A stretch of 44,372 bases of DNA, from assembly GCA_964459075.1 (NCBI GenBank), contig CAYWKE010000004.1, positions 1 to 44,372 of the forward strand, read 5' to 3'. Below, piece by piece: positions 2,861 to 26,517 of the stretch. The notes below the pieces were generated by a model. The model was not told the DNA's origin. It ran no database searches and saw nothing but the letters and a program-made list of their open reading frames with translations. Both the position numbers and the translations under genes were made by a program. Numbering within the stretch: the stretch's first letter is position 1; every line of letters begins with the position of its first letter. Source of the DNA: an uncultured Candidatus Saccharibacteria bacterium (lineage in GTDB: Bacteria > Patescibacteriota > Minisyncoccia > Phycocordibacterales > UBA12088).

Positions 2861-4165
2861 ATGCATGACGAATACCCGAACACGTCAGTAGATACAATAG
2901 ACCGAACTTCGGCATCACCGCAGCAGCGACTTCTCTTAACGAGCGTGCTGCTCTCGTCGCTCCTCTCGGCCACGGTCGTCGGGGGAGGGGTTTTCCTCTA
3001 CCTGAGTGAGATCGATCTCACTCCCCGTGAGCGTACAGGCGCGTGGGCACCGGCTGTCTCTCGTGCGCCGTCTGGCGGAAGCCCTGGTGTTGTCCAGGCA
3101 GATCTTGCAGCATCAGAGAGCACCATCGTTGCCATCACTGAGCGTGCGAGCCCAGCGGTTGTCTCGGTCGTGGTGACCCAAGAGGTGCCGGTCTACGAGC
3201 GCTACTGGGAGGAAGTGGTGCCGTTTAAGGACTTCTTCGGACGCGAGTTTCGATATCAGGTTCCACAGGAGCGACAGCAGGGGACAGAGGAGCGTGAGGT
3301 GGGTGGAGGCTCTGGGTTCTTTGTTTCCGCAGACGGCCTCATCGTGACCAACCGCCACGTCGTTAGTCTCTCTGATGCGAACTACTCCATCCTCACCAAC
3401 GACGGTGAGAGTTTCCCGGTCGAGGTGCTGGCACGCGACGACGTGTTGGACATCGCTCTTCTCAAAACGACCGAAGTACCCACTGGCGGCTTCCCACACC
3501 TCACCTTTGGTGATGCGCGCTCGCTCAAGCCGGGGCAGACCGCGATAGCGATCGGGAACGCGCTTGGAGAGTTTCGCAACTCGGTCTCGGTCGGGGTCAT
3601 CTCAGGCCTCTCGCGCTCCATTGTCGCAGGGGACGGCATGGGCATGGCCGAGCGATTGGATGAGGTCATTCAAACGGATGCTGCCATCAATCCCGGCAAT
3701 TCGGGAGGTCCACTCCTGAATAGCCGCGGGCAGGTCATCGGGGTGAACGTGGCGGTCGCGTTCGGCTCAGAGAACATTGGATTTGCTATTCCTGCGGACG
3801 TTGTTGCGGACATCGTTGATTCAGTTGAACAGTACGGTGAGATCCAGCGACCATTCCTGGGTGTGCGCTACGTGAGCGTCTCACCACGTATTGCGGCCGA
3901 GGAAGGATTGGAGCGAGAGTATGGCGCGCTCATCATAGAGGGACGATCGGCGATGGATGTAGCCGTCCTCCCTGAGAGCCCTGCCGGGCGTGCAGGCTTG
4001 CGTGCAGGCGATCTCGTCACTGATATTGGGGGCGTTTCGCTTGAGGAGCGTACACTCGCATCTGTGATACGTGAGCGGCGCATCGGAGAGACGGTGGAGG
4101 TCATCTTTCTGCGAGATGGGCGCGAGAGGAGTGTCGAGGTGACCTTGGAGAAGGCGCCGGAGTAG
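2861..4165 (+). CDS. htrA: HtrA/DegP-family serine protease with C-terminal PDZ domain, N-terminal membrane anchor
   Basis: Catalytic-triad contexts TNRHVV, DIALLK and GNSGGPL. PDZ-like C-terminus and hydrophobic N-terminal segment. ATG 2861 preferred over GTG 2807, which abuts the glmS stop. Confidence 0.88.
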   Translation: MHDEYPNTSVDTIDRTSASPQQRLLLTSVLLSSLLSATVVGGGVFLYLSEIDLTPRERTGAWAPAVSRAPSGGSPGVVQADLAASESTIVAITERASPAVVSVVVTQEVPVYERYWEEVVPFKDFFGREFRYQVPQERQQGTEEREVGGGSGFFVSADGLIVTNRHVVSLSDANYSILTNDGESFPVEVLARDDVLDIALLKTTEVPTGGFPHLTFGDARSLKPGQTAIAIGNALGEFRNSVSVGVISGLSRSIVAGDGMGMAERLDEVIQTDAAINPGNSGGPLLNSRGQVIGVNVAVAFGSENIGFAIPADVVADIVDSVEQYGEIQRPFLGVRYVSVSPRIAAEEGLEREYGALIIEGRSAMDVAVLPESPAGRAGLRAGDLVTDIGGVSLEERTLASVIRERRIGETVEVIFLRDGRERSVEVTLEKAPE

Positions 4166-23015: not shown

Positions 23016-23987
23016 TCATTCGTCGTTGTGTGACCCACTATGAAATCGCTCGTGAATATCACGGAGCTGTTTGTTGGTGACGTGCGTATATATCTGCGTG
23101 GTGGCCACGTTCTGGTGTCCGAGGAGTTCTTGCACACTACGTAGGTCGGCACCGTGTGAGAGGAGGTCGGTTGCGTACGTATGACGCAGCGTGTGCGGGG
23201 TCACCTTTTTACTCAGTCCGGCAAAGCGAGCGTAGCGAGCTATCATGAGCTGGATGGAACGGGGGGTGAGGCGACGTTCGCCCGGTTCGCGGGAGCGGTA
23301 GTTGATGAAGAGGGGTTTGAAGGTGTCACGCCGTTGTGAGAGGTATCGTCGAAGCCAGGTGGCGGCTCGCGGCGAGATGAAAATGGTACGCACTTTCTTA
23401 CCTTTACCCACAATGGACAGCTCGTAGGTGCGCGATTCGCTTCCATCGCGGAGCATGGAGAGTTGGTCGACGTTGAGCGCGGTCAACTCGGCGATGCGCA
23501 TGCCCGAAGAGAAAAAGAGCTCCATGATGGTGCGGTCGCGCAGACCCGATGGTGTGGACACGTCCGGCTGTTCGATCATGCGCTGTATGTCCGACAGCTC
23601 GAGGAACGATATGGTCTCCTCTGACTTCTGCTTCGCAAGCTTCACCTTGCTTGAAGGGAGTGTCTCGATGTCGCGATCGGCAAGAAAGTCCAAGAGTGAG
23701 CGCAAAGCGATGAGGTAGTAATTCTGAGACTTCTTTGAGAGGGAAGAGCAGCGCGTGGTCACGTAGCCACGTGCGAGGAAGAGCCGGTAATCCCAAATGT
23801 GCTGCGCGGTCAATTCGTGCGGCAGCAGGTCTCGCTGACCGATGCGCTCGAGCCAGTGGGTGAAGAGGGCGAGGTACTGCGCGTAGTTGCGTTGCGTGTT
23901 GCTTGAAAGTCCCTTCTCGATCTCGCAGTAGTCGAGGAAGGGGAGTACGTGTTCACGAAGAGGTGTGGTGCTTGTACCGGAAGGCAT
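23016..23987 (-). CDS. Tyrosine site-specific recombinase (XerC/XerD-like)
   Basis: N-terminal SAM-like core-binding domain (LSSNTQRNYAQYLALFTHWL). Catalytic residue contexts GMRIAEL, HTLRHTYATDLL and LGHQNVATTQIYTHV. Confidence 0.9.
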   Translation of the reverse strand: MPSGTSTTPLREHVLPFLDYCEIEKGLSSNTQRNYAQYLALFTHWLERIGQRDLLPHELTAQHIWDYRLFLARGYVTTRCSSLSKKSQNYYLIALRSLLDFLADRDIETLPSSKVKLAKQKSEETISFLELSDIQRMIEQPDVSTPSGLRDRTIMELFFSSGMRIAELTALNVDQLSMLRDGSESRTYELSIVGKGKKVRTIFISPRAATWLRRYLSQRRDTFKPLFINYRSREPGERRLTPRSIQLMIARYARFAGLSKKVTPHTLRHTYATDLLSHGADLRSVQELLGHQNVATTQIYTHVTNKQLRDIHERFHSGSHNDE

Positions 23988-23995
23988 TAAGGCCT

Positions 23996-24026
23996 AGTAT
24001 ACCGTATTGTGTTTATTCGCACAATA
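23996..24026 (-). promoter_or_regulatory. Putative recombinase promoter (-35 TTGTGC, 17 nt, -10 TATACT, 8 nt to ATG) overlapped by a 7-bp inverted repeat
   Basis: Minus strand reads TTGTGCGAATAAACACAATACGGTATACTAGGCCTTA then ATG. TATTGTG (24005-24011) and CACAATA (24020-24026) form a palindrome over the -35/spacer. Confidence 0.4.
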
Positions 24027-24031
24027 TATGT

Positions 24032-24195
24032 AAAACGAACCAAAGCCATACGCTTTGCGTTCGTTTTACATAACGCAGATTTTGCGAATATACGTATTCG
24101 CAAGAATCTGCTCAAAACGAACCAAAGCCATACGCTTTGCGTTCGTTTTACATAACGCAGATTTTGCGAATATACGTATTCGCAAGAATCTGCTC
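24032..24195. repeat. Two perfect tandem copies of an 82-bp unit, each unit holding two long near-perfect palindromes; partial third start (AGAACGAA) at 24196
   Basis: 24032-24113 is identical to 24114-24195 by direct comparison. Palindrome A is TAAAACGAACCAAAGC catac GCTTTGCGTTCGTTTTA. Palindrome B is GCAGATTTTGCGAAT atacgt ATTCGCAAGAATCTGC. Confidence 0.95.
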
Positions 24196-24227
24196 AGAAC
24201 GAATAACCCTCACCTTTGCTCGATTCA

Positions 24228-24850
24228 CTAAGCCTGTTCTAAACAAAGCTCCAGGATCGCTTCTGTGGACCGTTCGTTCGATACCTGGTATGCAGTACCA
24301 CCTCGCTGCCGGAACACAGCACACGCGTTTTGAAAATCATCGATCAAGATGCTTGCTTAGATCGAATGCTCCCAGTTCTTCACATACATCAACAAAGAGC
24401 TGGCCGTCATCATCGGTCTTGTACCGACCTGAGTCTGCTGAATTCTAGAGGCGAGTGAAGTAGCGATCTAGGCCAAGTGCGGTCCAGGTCCAGCGCGTGA
24501 TCGTGTCGCTGTTCGTGGTAATGAGCATCGTGTGGAAGCGTACACGCAGCTTCCCCACTCTCGTGAAGAACTCTTCCCTGATTGACATTGTGCGACATTT
24601 AGCTTGAGTTTTCTTTTCAAGAAGAGTGGATCGTATCCCAGCTCACGACCCAACGCTTCACATACTTCCTCTGCGCTCGTGCGTCCTCGCATCCATGCTG
24701 CTGTGTTGCTGTTGCCAAACAGTCTCTCTTGGAGGCTTTCGTACACGTCTGTTGGGAGGTCACTCCAAACCGCTCAAAGCAGATGGTTCCATCGAAATCG
24801 ATGAACAGAATGCGTTCTCGATGCTCCCCTCCCTGTTCCGGCACGAGCAT
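24228..24850 (-). pseudogene. Degraded HAD-superfamily hydrolase gene (at least 3 frameshifts and 1 in-frame TAG)
   Basis: Hand translation of the minus strand finds the HAD motifs in order but in different frames. These are ILFIDFDGTICF (motif I), then WSDLPTDVYESLQERLF..., then VRFHTMLITTNSD...LGLDRYFTRL-TAG(24445-24447)-NSADSGRYKTDDDGQLFVDVCEELG, then SILIDDFQNACAVF (motif IV). One shift falls at an A-run near 24606-24618. Confidence 0.75.
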
Positions 24851-24876
24851 GATCTAACGTCGCACAATAAACTAGG

Positions 24877-25134
24877 CTAGTTTTCCTTTGGCTCATCCAG
24901 ATGCCTCGTGAAGTGCTGCTTCAGTGTCCCGTCGATCGTCTTTTGAAAATTGATGGCATGCTGGGGGGTGAGGACGATCTCTGAGACGAGCTGCGCCTGG
25001 TCAGTATTAGGTCGTACAAAGAGGAACTGCAGCACGACCGCATCATCTGATACGTTGAGGTGCACGGAGTTCGCAAACGTAGGCTGGTGCTCTCTACTCA
25101 TCTGCACGTTGAGTTGCTTTTTGTTCTGTTCCAT
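24877..25134 (-). CDS. DUF3467-family small protein
   Basis: 85 aa. The pattern FANSVHLNVSDDAVVLQFLFVRP....QLVSEIVLTPQHAINFQKTI matches my recollection of the DUF3467 consensus (YAN......S..EF.LDF....P......V.SR...TP.HAK.L...L). Confidence 0.7.
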   Translation of the reverse strand: MEQNKKQLNVQMSREHQPTFANSVHLNVSDDAVVLQFLFVRPNTDQAQLVSEIVLTPQHAINFQKTIDGTLKQHFTRHLDEPKEN

Positions 25135-25155
25135 TGGTGAATGTTGATCATTTTC

Positions 25156-26517
25156 TTATAAGTAACTCAAAGGATTGAGATATGCTTCAAATCCCGCCAC
25201 AGGTATTGCCACAGGACTACATGCGGTAATGGGGCGTCCGGGAATGTCCCCTAGCTTTTGGATGCTCACGCCTTCTGTGGCGTACACTGAGAAGTGGAGG
25301 TGGGGGCCGGTCGAGTAGCCCGTGTTGCCACTGTACCCCACAATATCGCCGGTCGCCACCTTCTGCCCCGGTGTGACACCAATGTGGGAGAGGTGTGCGT
25401 ACATGGTCGAGAGCCCGTTGGCGTGCTCGATCATCACCCACTTGCCGTAGGAATAGCAGCCGGCGGCTGCATCCGTGTTGCCCGTTCCTTTGACCGTGCC
25501 TGCAAGCGCTGCGGTCACGGTGGTGCCGGGTGCAGCACGAAAATCGATGCCATTGTGGCCTTGGCCGTTGTACGCTCCTCCGGCAGCAAAGGCCGTGTTA
25601 CCGAAGTACTGCGTGATGCACTTGTCGTTCCCGAGTGCGCTGGTGAAGGTCGGGCAGTTGAGCATGTAGTCGGTCGCGAACGGCCACGCAAGCACGCCCG
25701 AGCCAACCGCAGGAATGGTCGCTGGGTTGAGGATGAAATCCAGCTGCGACTCGAACGTCCGCAGTTCAGCCAAGAACTTCTCCCGTGCAGCGATACGGTC
25801 ATTGAGGAGCTGCTGGTACTTCTCTTCTTCGCTTTGGGTGACCTCAAGAAGTTCGCTCTTCTCGTCGAGGTTCGCATCGACCACGGCTCGCTCGTTTGCA
25901 AGTTCACTTTTGAGACCCGAGAGACGGCCTTTCTTCTGTGCGTTGAGATCGCGCGCACCCTCAAGCTCATCTTTTGATTCGCGCAGATCGGCGAGGTGCG
26001 TTTGAATAGCGAGTTGGAAGCTTTCGATCTCAGCAAGGTTCTCCCAGAACTCTGCAAGTGTATCGTTCTCCAAGAACGCTTCGACCATGCTCTTCTCACC
26101 AAGCGTGTTGAGGGCGCGTAGCGAGACGGCTATCGCTTCTGCGCTTTGAGCGATCTGGAGTTCTCGCTCTCGAATGCGGATCTCCAACTCGCGTATCTCG
26201 AGATCGGTCGAGTTGATCTCCTCCTCGGTGACGCGCATCTCGGTGGCGACCTTGTTGCGTGAGAGATCGAGTTCGTTGATGGTCGACTCAAGTGAGCGCT
26301 TCTCCTGGCTGACGACGTTCAGTTCTTGCTGGTACTCCTCGATCTCTTCACGCAGCTCGATGAGGCGCTTGTTGTGTTCGAGGATCTTCGAGCGCAGCTG
26401 CCCTGCCTCATCAGCATTCACGTGAGGGATCACAATACTGGAGAGGATGCCTGCCGAGAAGAGGCATATAAGAACAAGTGCGCTGTACGTGCGGGTGACC
26501 ATCTCAGGTAAGGACAT
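25156..26517 (-). CDS. M23-family metallopeptidase with long N-terminal coiled coil (EnvC-like architecture)
   Basis: TM anchor, about 230 aa of heptad-rich E/L/K sequence, then M23 motifs HNGIDF and GNTGYSTGPHLHF. Start is ambiguous (26532, 26517 or 26502). Confidence 0.87.
   Translation of the reverse strand: MSLPEMVTRTYSALVLICLFSAGILSSIVIPHVNADEAGQLRSKILEHNKRLIELREEIEEYQQELNVVSQEKRSLESTINELDLSRNKVATEMRVTEEEINSTDLEIRELEIRIRERELQIAQSAEAIAVSLRALNTLGEKSMVEAFLENDTLAEFWENLAEIESFQLAIQTHLADLRESKDELEGARDLNAQKKGRLSGLKSELANERAVVDANLDEKSELLEVTQSEEEKYQQLLNDRIAAREKFLAELRTFESQLDFILNPATIPAVGSGVLAWPFATDYMLNCPTFTSALGNDKCITQYFGNTAFAAGGAYNGQGHNGIDFRAAPGTTVTAALAGTVKGTGNTDAAAGCYSYGKWVMIEHANGLSTMYAHLSHIGVTPGQKVATGDIVGYSGNTGYSTGPHLHFSVYATEGVSIQKLGDIPGRPITACSPVAIPVAGFEAYLNPLSYL

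Follow-up and report, generated by a model that had tools for sequence, protein, structure and literature searches.

Tandem hairpin elements at the edge of a candidate dif site beside a Xer-type recombinase gene in a candidate-phyla bacterium

The tandem repeats upstream of a Xer-like tyrosine recombinase gene in the window (the whole stretch of 44,372 nt that was analysed) are best explained overall, with moderate confidence, as a gene-less element that sits at the edge of dif, is built from copies of dif arms and exploits the adjacent Xer.

The repeat search revealed two 82-bp units at 100% identity, 24032-24113 and 24114-24195, and Tandem Repeats Finder reported the array at 24032-24203 (period 82, 2.1 copies, score 337), including an 8-nt remnant of a third unit (AGAACGAA at 24196-24203) that differs from AAAACGAA by one mismatch. 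The array begins 45 bp and ends 216 bp upstream of the xer start. A sequence-only reading of this DNA had already described the identical units, the third one begun, their place upstream of a Xer-like gene and two palindromes, A and B, with one bulged base each, and all of this was borne out. Palindrome A reads TAAAACGAAC-CAAAGC / CATAC / GCTTTG-C-GTTCGTTTTA and palindrome B reads GCAGATT-TTGCGAAT / ATACGT / ATTCGCAA-G-AATCTGC, with no further copy of either in the window of 44 kb when as many as 3 mismatches were allowed (chance expectation 0). Folding of the 211-nt region was much more stable than that of its shuffles (DNA z = -13.8, RNA z = -10.6). Independent support for the repeat came from a Logan unitig of run SRR7048222 (L202), which has 0 mismatches to the window and starts exactly at the first 31-mer unique beyond the repeat, as a de Bruijn graph behaves if the preceding 30-mer has two continuations; this indicates at least two units and speaks against an artefact of the assembler.

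Comparison with relatives suggests that the repeats are to be parsed as two tandem 62-nt hairpin elements, each accompanied by a 20-nt spacer (Table 1). The proximal element, TTCGTTTT-GA-GCAGATT-C-TTGCGAAT-ACGTAT-ATTCGCAA-AATCTGC-GTTATGT-AAAACGAA in xer-sense, consists of a direct and an inverted pseudo-dif separated by a 6-nt loop, with palindrome B as its upper stem, and the first spacer holds the small hairpin CAAAGC/GCTTTG, which together with the flanking arms makes up palindrome A. The broken-off third unit corresponds to the outermost arm of the distal element (xer-sense TTCGTTCT, one mismatch), as the insertion of N elements at an arm must leave N+1 arms. Each element thus carries two inverted pseudo-dif sites with dif-like arms (TTCGTTTT, TTGCGAA) and foreign centres of unequal length, the spacing between the boxes being 21 and 25 nt versus 20 in dif. 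As a single strand, it folds into one long stem composed of the arm duplex, an asymmetric bubble, a second duplex, the bulged base and a terminal stem-loop.

Table 1. Features at and around the repeat array, in window coordinates.
Feature	Position	Strand	Basis
Xer-like tyrosine recombinase gene, 323 aa, intact	23016..23987	-	ORF, HMM and alignment
Predicted xer promoter, overlapping candidate dif	24006..24034	-	Consensus scan: -35 TTTACA, -10 CACAAT
Candidate dif core site, xer-sense TTCGTTTTACATATATTGTGCGAA	24016..24039	-	Conservation, uniqueness, terminus position
Spacer 1, 20 nt, between candidate dif and proximal element	24040..24059	-	Fold, repeat analysis
Proximal hairpin element, 62 nt	24060..24121	-	nhmmer profile (E = 4.7e-16), structural alignment, DNA fold
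Spacer 2, 20 nt, identical to spacer 1	24122..24141	-	Repeat analysis
Distal hairpin element, 62 nt	24142..24203	-	nhmmer (E = 3.2e-15)
HAD-like hydrolase pseudogene (context only, outside the element)	24225..24850 (about)	-	Three-frame translation

The xer product aligns end to end with Escherichia coli XerD (1A0P), with the catalytic R, K, H-x-x-R, H and Y all present, and contains the Pfam Phage_integrase domain (E = 2.7e-36) and a SAM-like N domain. Its best NCBIfam and PDB matches were XerC (226 bits), XerD (222 bits) and 1A0P (6.7e-38), both NCBIfam scores being under the equivalog cut-offs, and XerS and XerH matched at 107 bits and 1.3e-13, respectively. Orthologues with 53-79% identity were found throughout Parcubacteria/Paceibacteria metagenome-assembled genomes. 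The suggestion of a decaying gene does not apply to xer; it does hold for the HAD-like pseudogene, which has at least three frameshifts and one in-frame stop, with its DFDGT, LITTNS and IDD motifs spread over three frames and no Pfam match to its fragments. Gene strands in the window converge at 22.6-23.0 kb, and the vicinity has no tRNA or tmRNA that could have been targeted for integration instead.

Conservation among related loci pointed to a recombination site other than the palindromes. Neither palindrome, proposed earlier as the core site, was conserved in 80 related Parcubacteria loci; what was conserved is a 24-mer, found in 58 of the 80 at no more than 4 substitutions (identical in 35). 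In these 58 loci it occurs once per locus, in fixed orientation and always just upstream of the same Xer gene, in most at a distance of 15-60 bp, and it was found only once in the window. The information content is about 2 bits across exactly the 24 positions and about 0 in the flanks, and the site has been kept although the Xer proteins have diverged (53-77% identity) and the site-distal DNA spans 35-61% G+C. Its parts are an outer (xer-distal) arm TTCGTTTT, a centre ACATATAT and an inner arm TGTGCGAA, an 8+8+8 split deduced solely from the insertion junctions, and its dyad symmetry is confined to the outermost 4 bp (TTCG/CGAA). Across the 42 loci with enough flank, the GC skew changed from +0.044 distal of the 24-mer to -0.058 beyond xer (distal higher than downstream in 38 of 42), the AT skew from +0.080 to -0.056, and the co-oriented ORF strand coverage from 85% to 25%, a convergent, terminus-like arrangement; in the window itself, the GC skew showed no sign change at the 24-mer. 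As it lies at the flip of GC skew and gene orientation, the 24-mer is probably the dif of this Parcubacteria lineage, the site at which the adjacent Xer would bind and recombine. The repeats cannot be that site by the measure of the sequence-only reading itself, which had named absence from relatives as evidence against it, as they are absent from most relatives.

The predicted promoter places its -35 hexamer within the 24-mer and its -10 hexamer 17 nt downstream, and a -10-like hexamer (at least 5 of 6 positions) occurred 16-19 nt past TTTACA in 34% of the 58 loci versus 3% of the background, suggesting that this region may act as the xer promoter. A 7-bp palindrome noted earlier at the promoter belongs in part to the conserved site, its right half overlapping the 24-mer, as do the first 8 nt of the repeat. 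An origin of replication, suggested by a DnaA-box-like word, was ruled out by the terminus-type switch (positive to negative skew, convergent genes). An apparent second, inverted half-dif (TCGCACAATAT) 480-613 bp distal of dif in five loci (L001, L002, L005, L019 and L030) proved to be a coding coincidence, since it encodes the CRTIF motif of an isomerase-like gene, which L019 and L030 have in intact form and which seems to have decayed in L001.

The same hairpin element was detected in four other lineages (L038/L198, L205-207/L210, L208 and L209; E ≤ 1e-14), and 12 copies were scored by profile, some of them repeat samplings of one species. In all five lineages it lies directly distal of dif, in one orientation and at the arm/centre boundary, and no copy was found away from dif within the window or 2.05 Mb of related loci. 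The lineages hold 1, 1, 2, 3 and at least 3 copies; the three units of the L208 array have differing spacers, and the L038 array contains a run of N. The right end of the element is a variable spacer without inverted repeat, which in the other lineages measures 6-23 nt and differs in sequence. Mean column identity of the element is 81%, whereas the neighbouring intergenic DNA is unalignable, and the internal non-dif sequences (GCAGATT/AATCTGC, GYTATGT) recur in lineages with a Xer identity as low as 65-72%. On a structural alignment made by hand (MAFFT misplaced one lineage by one base), all 24 of 24 stem pairs were kept across the five lineages, five of them with compensatory double changes. 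Among these is an arm pair that tracks the host's own dif variant (TTCGCTTT / AAAGCGAA in L205), and the direct pseudo-site of L208, TTCGTTTT GAGCAGAT TGTACGAA, has dif arms with just the 8-bp centre swapped. The bubble has 2 versus 7 nt, and in 4 of 5 lineages its GTTATGT strand is complementary to ACATA, the opening 5 nt of the dif centre; a loop of 6-11 nt separates the pseudo-sites, and single-sequence DNA folds range from -16 to -20 kcal/mol.

The insertion separates the outer arm TTCGTTTT from the centre ACATATAT precisely at their boundary, so that a perfect dif is regenerated beside xer, while the far end of the array carries a hybrid arm (TTCGTTCT in the window) followed by a foreign centre, a layout observed in all five lineages. 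Comparison of L205 with six close relatives revealed a clean 68-bp insertion after ...tgtggataag TTCGCTTT, with empty sites in the same flank in L257/258, L259, L261, L262/263 (Xer 90-92% identical), L039 and L040; all three arms of L205 are of the host's C variant. Carriers are scattered in the Xer tree, each with closer empty relatives. The six empty relatives of L205 favour gain of the element; because only about five species carry it, among at least 495 genome stretches encoding a relative of this Xer, an ancient origin followed by repeated precise loss may be an alternative.

These observations are consistent with a relationship of the element to the integrative mobile elements exploiting Xer (IMEX) of the CTXphi type, of which it would be a non-autonomous form devoid of cargo. 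Xer would bind the arm duplex of the folded, single-stranded element together with dif and exchange strands at the arm/centre boundary, after which the insertion would be fixed by replication and the regenerated dif could take up a further copy. Alternatively, units may be gained or lost through unequal Xer-mediated or homologous exchange between pseudo-sites on sister chromosomes; either route, repeated insertion or unequal exchange, would keep the copies identical. In its most specific form, this proposal describes a cargo-less 'mini-IMEX', a selfish attP-like hairpin of about 70-90 nt that Xer splices as a folded single strand into dif, that amplifies in tandem and that spreads from one candidate-phyla bacterium to another, perhaps by way of natural DNA uptake; we regard it as possible though rather doubtful.

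Several observations speak against such an IMEX-like origin. A free form of 68-90 nt would be far below any known IMEX in size and too small for recombination as a double-stranded circle. In the orientation found, the strand that is joined to the chromosomal arm starts with GAGCAG and is not homologous to the dif centre; it is the opposite strand of the bubble that shows such homology. Simple import from a donor with the T variant would not predict the all-C-variant arms of L205. The element was not seen in a free or circular state, nor was a larger, gene-carrying relative with the same ends found in viral contigs or in phage or plasmid collections: BLAST of the 211-bp region against the phage and plasmid collections gave no match, the dif motif had 0 matches in viral contigs, and the 46 matches there to a 17-mer of arm plus AGCAGATT, about the number of a rough chance estimate, included none with the rest of the element. 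An exact 22-mer, a pattern that was too strict, had no match in metagenome contigs, and a generic hairpin search (GTAAAACGAA N4-30 TTCGTTTTAC) of genome contigs returned only unrelated terminator-like hairpins from many phyla.

The array could instead serve the host, its TTCG/CGAA half-sites binding Xer and thereby tuning the xer promoter (autoregulation) or forming a topological filter at dif like that of plasmid cer/psi. Such an accessory role agrees with the co-variation of the half-sites with the resident dif arm, with the position of the array directly upstream of the predicted -35 box inside dif and with the conservation of the element beside unalignable intergenic DNA, and cer likewise has accessory DNA beside its core site (PMC5357621). 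We nevertheless consider it unlikely, given that the array is missing from the vast majority of genomes that have this Xer and dif, including relatives at 90-92% Xer identity, indicating that it is not a needed part of the Xer/dif system. Moreover, its copy number and spacers vary freely, and the box spacing of its pseudo-sites is not that of dif.

Growth of the palindromes in situ, independent of Xer, likewise seems improbable. In that scenario, template switching or fold-back duplication of a dif arm, followed by slippage or unequal homologous crossing-over, would have produced a neutral, vertically inherited array that is repeatedly lost through its 8-10-bp direct arm repeats. The perfect identity of the two units would fit recent slippage, precise loss would restore a perfect dif and leave a patchy distribution, the arms of L205 are all of the host variant, and the symmetry of the palindromes could be maintained by intrastrand templated repair. 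What this account leaves unexplained is the sharing of non-dif internal sequences by lineages with such divergent Xer proteins, for which selection or transfer would be needed, and the identical insertion point and orientation in five lineages; the uniformly empty sites of the six close relatives of L205 also argue for gain.

A role at the RNA level, whether as a structured small RNA or as bidirectional intrinsic terminators, insulators or REP/BIME-like 3'-end stabilisers separating xer from the co-oriented genes upstream, appears quite improbable, although the hairpins are very stable (z of -10.6 to -13.8), the covariation of the stems would fit an RNA equally well and a terminator scan flagged the small CAAAGC/GCTTTG stem with CGTTCGTTTT as terminator-like on both strands. 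The flagged stem is the 6-bp inner one, whereas the long stems have no proper T-run, and 0 Rfam models matched the window at the gathering score, and in 23500-25300 all matches were at chance level, the best being to eukaryotic miRNA and snoRNA models (E ≥ 0.04). Furthermore, this role does not explain why the stems are made of dif arms that track the host's dif variant, why the element occurs at dif and not after other genes, or why most relatives lack it.

The proposal of the sequence-only reading that palindromes A and B are themselves dif/lox-type crossover cores, giving four tandem crossover sites, rightly related the palindromes to Xer sites: B does offer 8-bp arms around a 6-bp spacer, and the arms share CGAA/TTCG boxes with the conserved site. 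It is very unlikely to be correct, as neither palindrome is kept in the 58 loci that have both the recombinase and the 24-mer. In B, the CGAA boxes adjoin the 6-bp spacer in a polarity opposite to that of the 24-mer arms, which makes it two back-to-back pseudo-sites, and its inner stem and loop vary between lineages, as does the ATACG centre that A and B share here. The distance between the arms of A is 18-20 nt here and 6-23 nt elsewhere, A being the junction of one element, a spacer and the next outer arm. The four supposed sites are therefore better described as two inserted elements, each with two non-dif pseudo-sites. Finally, duplication by the assembler is scarcely credible: the units are perfectly identical, short-read assemblies often misjudge tandem copy number and the L038 array has its run of N, but the independent unitig ends exactly at the repeat boundary, as for a true repeat, and four other assemblies contain homologous arrays, which range from 1 unit to at least 3 and in L208 have differing spacers.

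Three further readings were rejected. A transposon running from GAGCAG to the spacer end with an 8-bp target duplication (TTCGTTTT) is at odds with the variable right end and the lack of a terminal inverted repeat; a REP/BIME or MITE is at odds with that right end and with the lack of dispersed copies in the window and the 2.05 Mb of related loci. An inversion switch between the inverted sites was rejected on geometry, intervals of 6-20 nt being judged too short to synapse.

No description of the 24-mer was found in the searchable literature, and it would be the first candidate dif for Parcubacteria/Paceibacteria, coupled to its recombinase gene and overlapping the promoter of that gene; as a dif, it would provide a terminus marker for genome finishing and replication-rate estimates. 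Should the element be mobilised by Xer, it would represent a minimal natural substrate, an attP-like hairpin plus spacer with no genes, in which the DNA requirements of IMEX-type single-strand integration are isolated, and dif hijacking would extend deep into uncultured bacteria with reduced genomes. A 'mini-IMEX' would, moreover, be the smallest known parasite of a site-specific recombinase and the first sign of Xer acting on folded single-stranded DNA outside filamentous vibriophages. Even if the element is neutral or regulatory, the location of the real recombination site is corrected.

Among known systems, the REP/BIME sequences of enterobacteria consist of imperfect palindromes that alternate in orientation, are joined by short and long linkers and in some cases are amplified in tandem. 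They are dispersed in hundreds of copies, whereas the present element, with arms that duplicate the dif arm, was not seen anywhere but at dif. Integron attC sites are imperfect palindromes that a tyrosine recombinase recognises in their folded single-stranded form; they have two paired boxes, an unpaired spacer between them, one or more extrahelical bases and a variable terminal stem-loop. The imperfect palindrome of the element has the same fold layout, but the xer product scored only 102 bits (TIGR02249, cut-off 265) and 67 bits (cut-off 435) against integron integrase HMMs, no cassette ORFs lie between the sites, and the element is located at dif rather than attI. Xer-type sites also alternate in orientation in the pdif modules of Acinetobacter (PMC12907356, PMC11705084); there, the sites border plasmid modules that carry genes and span hundreds to thousands of bp, in contrast to the intervals of 6 and 20 nt found here on the chromosome at the main dif.

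In XerS/difSL, the dimer-resolution site adjoins the gene of its recombinase as one module (PMC5357621), and the sequence-only reading was right to recognise a Xer/dif-type module of this kind. Similar to XerS/difSL and XerH/difH, a conserved 24-bp site lies upstream of xer at the skew switch, although the protein is nearer to XerC/XerD, the site sequence is unrelated and the dyad symmetry of the 24-mer is in the outermost 4 bp and not beside the centre.

In the phage CTXphi, two dif-like sites that face in opposite directions and have centres of 12 and 7 nt form a forked hairpin, and CTXphi-type IMEX have no recombinase of their own and form tandem arrays at dif (PMC3089051, PMC3442271, PMC5357621). 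The element would at best function as an IMEX does and falls outside the standard members of this class, having neither genes nor a known free form. Its spacer of 6-23 nt takes the place of the 7-kb phage genome of CTXphi, its sites are separated by a loop of 6-11 nt, as against about 90, it is the opposite bubble strand that has homology to the dif centre (compared with the attP1 and dif1 sequences in PMC3089051), and it resides in a candidate-phyla (CPR) bacterium whose Xer is a different one. The likenesses are nonetheless extensive: inverted dif-like sequences with unequal centres fold into a stem with an unpaired bubble, the element likewise lacks a recombinase and forms tandem arrays at dif, dif is regenerated on one side with a hybrid site on the other in five lineages, and presence/absence polymorphism is accompanied by clean empty sites.

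The 82-bp repeats are best read as two copies (as assembled) of a hairpin element built from dif arms and inserted at the true dif. Tandem Repeats Finder placed the only strong array of the window at 24032-24203 (period 82, 2.1 copies, score 337), and a repeat search of the window gave 100% identity between 24032-24113 and 24114-24195, confirming the identical tandem units of the sequence-only reading. Its palindromes A and B, each with one bulged base, were present as described, upstream of the tyrosine recombinase gene (xer). The third unit that appeared to break off does exist as 8 nt (AGAACGAA, 24196-24203) continuing the array, with 1 mismatch to the first 8 bases of the unit, but these bases are the outer arm at the far junction. 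The region folds more stably than its shuffles (z = -13.8 as DNA and -10.6 as RNA), and neither palindrome had a further copy across the 44 kb at ≤3 mismatches, shuffles likewise giving 0. None of the retrieved independent contigs covers window 24062-24800.

For comparison, 80 loci that encode related recombinases (53-77% identity) were used, every one from a Parcubacteria/Paceibacteria-type metagenome-assembled genome. When the repeat region was compared with these loci by short-word BLAST, neither palindrome was matched; the match was a stretch of 24-27 nt at 24013-24042, with 100% identity in many loci. The 24-mer within this match occurs at ≤4 substitutions in 58 of the 80 loci and is identical in 35, with one copy per locus, a constant orientation, and a position usually 15-60 bp upstream of the xer start. 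Information content is ~2 bits across exactly 24 positions and ~0 on either flank. This conservation, despite proteins that are only ~70% identical and a G+C content of 35-61% distal of the 24-mer (away from xer), suggests a DNA site recognised by a protein.

Among the 42 loci having at least 2 kb on both sides of the site, mean GC skew was +0.044 distal of it and -0.058 beyond xer (distal > downstream in 38/42), AT skew changed from +0.080 to -0.056, and 85% of long ORFs on the distal side versus 25% on the far side were co-oriented with xer. A skew that turns from positive to negative where genes converge is the mark of a replication terminus, and the site thus lies at a terminus-type switch. 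In the window, gene strands converge at 22.6-23.0 kb (left mostly +, right mostly -), and GC skew of the + strand in this 57% G+C genome is positive throughout 1-44372, with no sign change at the site, indicating a C-rich sense strand for the genes on the right; in related genomes of lower G+C the skew switch is present at the site. A dif beside its own recombinase gene is known as a 'single module' from xerS/difSL, and the 24-mer adjoins the Xer gene in the same layout (PMC5357621). Being single-copy, terminus-located, conserved, and beside the Xer gene, the 24-mer is identified from these comparisons with high confidence as a candidate dif; a literature search found no prior description of its sequence, nor of dif in candidate phyla. 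The Xer/dif module proposed from the sequence is supported in part, with its core site shifted from the palindromes to the 24-mer.

In 28 of the 58 loci (e.g., L010, a relative's locus, 3930-3938), the DnaA-box-like word TTATCCACA (≤1 mismatch, either orientation) stands on the distal side of the candidate dif, 4-5 nt away from it, against a chance expectation of 0.006 per 30-nt window, an odd finding in that such a word is unexpected at a terminus. In the window, the repeats fill the position where relatives carry this word. The sequence TCGCACAATAT, inverted and 480-613 bp distal of dif, was considered as a second, inverted dif and rejected as coding sequence, corresponding in L019 and L030 to the CRTIF motif of an isomerase-like gene (SGGSALDV...GDER). 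The corresponding reading frame of L001 meets a stop, suggesting a decayed copy.

The xer product aligned full-length with E. coli XerD, all catalytic residues being kept, and the XerC and XerD models scored about equally, both below their equivalog cut-offs. A -35-like TTTACA lies within the 24-mer (window promoter span 24006-24034, minus strand), followed after 16-19 nt by a -10-like hexamer (≥5/6 positions) in 34% of loci versus 3% of background. The predicted xer promoter thus seems to overlap dif, in which case dif-bound Xer would repress its own gene. The decaying gene reported nearby proved to be a HAD-like hydrolase pseudogene on the far side of the repeats, whereas xer itself is intact; the DFDGT, LITTNS, and IDD motifs of the pseudogene are split among three reading frames, and its fragments gave 0 Pfam matches. 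Two Logan contigs (L203 and L204), from runs SRR7048222 (0 mismatches to the window) and SRR7048223 (15 mismatches), end at one base, window 24801, just inside the start of this pseudogene, suggesting that the population varies or the graph branches there. Between the pseudogene and the DUF3467 gene, ~810 bp distal of dif, the 10-mer TCGCACAATA (+ strand, 24850-24859) is identical to a stretch of inner arm and centre in the candidate dif, with no outer arm adjoining it (~0.08 chance matches expected in the window).

The tandem repeat begins inside the site, its first 8 bases (24032-24039) forming the outer arm of the 24-mer; counted this way, two units are inserted and the outer arm is present three times. 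Written along xer (xer-sense), the order is flank, TTCGTTCT plus element body, 20-nt spacer, TTCGTTTT plus element body, 20-nt spacer, dif, and xer, the dif next to xer being TTCGTTTT-ACATATAT-TGTGCGAA (outer arm-centre-inner arm). The element, TTCGTTTT-GA-GCAGATT-C-TTGCGAAT-ACGTAT-ATTCGCAA-AATCTGC-GTTATGT-AAAACGAA, comprises a direct dif-like sequence, a 6-nt loop, and an inverted dif-like sequence, both with dif-like arms but with foreign centres that differ in length. Palindrome B corresponds to the upper portion of the hairpin, and palindrome A arises where the inverted arm of one element, the spacer (itself containing a small hairpin in this genome), and the following arm meet. This anatomy is assigned with high confidence.

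Features of the window and of related loci
Feature	Location	Strand or orientation	Details
xer, Xer-type tyrosine recombinase	23016-23987	-	323 aa, intact
Candidate dif	24016-24039	-	xer-sense TTCGTTTTACATATATTGTGCGAA
Proximal hairpin element	24060-24121	-	62 nt
Distal hairpin element	24142-24203	-	62 nt
HAD-like hydrolase pseudogene	~24225-24850	-	at least 3 frameshifts and 1 in-frame stop
Element, CAZADB010000012 (L038/L198)			at least 3 copies; array with 99-nt run of N at L038 3772-3870
Element, Hainich groundwater species (L205-L207, L210)			1 copy
Element, PJEL010000135 (L208)	L208 1700-2035		3 copies, spacers differ
Element, Ga0209542_10088294 (L209)			1 copy
TCGCACAATAT copies	L001 3409, L002 3359, L005 3065, L019 3330, L030 3346	inverted vs dif

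Scanning for patterns with the outer arm inverted beside dif revealed four more lineages that carry this hairpin element. A search profile derived from the units recovered all copies at E ≤ 1e-14 in 2.05 Mb of retrieved DNA and found there no element copies beyond those at dif. All copies lie directly distal of dif in one orientation, with a perfect dif kept beside xer. In a structural alignment made by hand, 24/24 stem pairs are maintained across the five lineages, with compensatory double changes in five pairs; the arm duplex contains one of the five, and there the Hainich dif variant TTCGCTTT is accompanied by the matching change in 3/3 arm copies. The direct pseudo-site of L208 (a dif-like sequence with a foreign centre), TTCGTTTT-GAGCAGAT-TGTACGAA, is dif with only the 8-bp centre swapped, providing the best clue to the 8+8+8 division of the site. 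In addition, the L208 flank before copy 1 (ccacaataca) returns in inverted form (tgtattgtgg) behind copy 2, and after it come two DnaA-box-like words arranged as a palindrome (tgtggat/ttatccaca); the DnaA-box-like word also occurs in two inter-element spacers; the history of this array is more complex than plain tandem duplication.

In the Xer tree the five carriers are scattered, every one of them having closer relatives that lack the element. For the Hainich species, four nearer relatives (Xer 90-92% identical, one sharing the upstream gene) and two further relatives (87-89%) are all empty. The empty site in these six reads ...tgtggataag-TTCGCTTT-ACATATATTGTGCGAA, and the carrier has 68 extra bp exactly at the arm/centre boundary, with the arm duplicated, which fits a crossover inside the arm or at its edge. 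Six empty relatives against one filled site favour gain. A cut-and-paste transposon with target duplication was rejected, the right end of the unit being a variable spacer without an inverted repeat.

A possible alternative is an Xer-binding array serving the host, through autoregulation of the dif-overlapping promoter or as cer-like accessory DNA, although such an array is missing from nearly all relatives. Neutral palindrome growth in situ with vertical descent and repeated precise loss would account for the perfect tandem identity, but leaves unexplained the six empty relatives and why internal sequence other than dif is conserved between deep lineages. Terminators or a structured RNA would explain the fold stability, but the stems are dif arms that track the host dif variant, the element occurs at dif only, and Rfam gave no meaningful match. 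The palindromes as crossover core sites, the version of the sequence-only reading, fail the comparison with the 80 loci, 58 of which share the 24-mer instead. An assembly artefact is unlikely, as an independent unitig terminates precisely at the repeat boundary and homologous arrays are present in other assemblies.

The inserted dif-arm element is best described, by analogy, as working like a miniature IMEX (integrative mobile element exploiting Xer) of the CTXphi type. As a cargo-less, non-autonomous relative of these, it would be inserted by Xer at the arm/centre boundary of dif and could have multiplied by re-insertion into the regenerated dif or, alternatively, by unequal exchange between pseudo-sites of sister chromosomes, which share their centre with one another and not with dif; either route would keep the copies identical. 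Confidence in these steps is moderate to low: the element is not known in a free form, its 68-90 nt would make it far smaller than any known IMEX, the homologous bubble strand is not the one expected from the CTXphi attP1/dif1 sequences as read here, and the arm variant in L205 (a Hainich locus) is uniform, where simple import from a different donor predicts otherwise. In CTXphi, attP1 and attP2 of the single-stranded phage genome fold into a forked hairpin, XerC exchanges one strand pair with dif, and replication finishes the integration, regenerating a new dif (PMC3089051, PMC3442271, PMC5357621). The present element differs in having neither body nor cargo, which places it outside IMEX membership proper, but shares with the CTXphi type a functional dif accompanied by two inverted non-functional dif-like sequences with unequal centres, able to form a paired stem that leaves a bubble open. 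In 4/5 lineages the bubble strand GTTATGT complements the dif centre over its first 5 bases, and may represent the sort of short homology that IMEX strand exchange needs.
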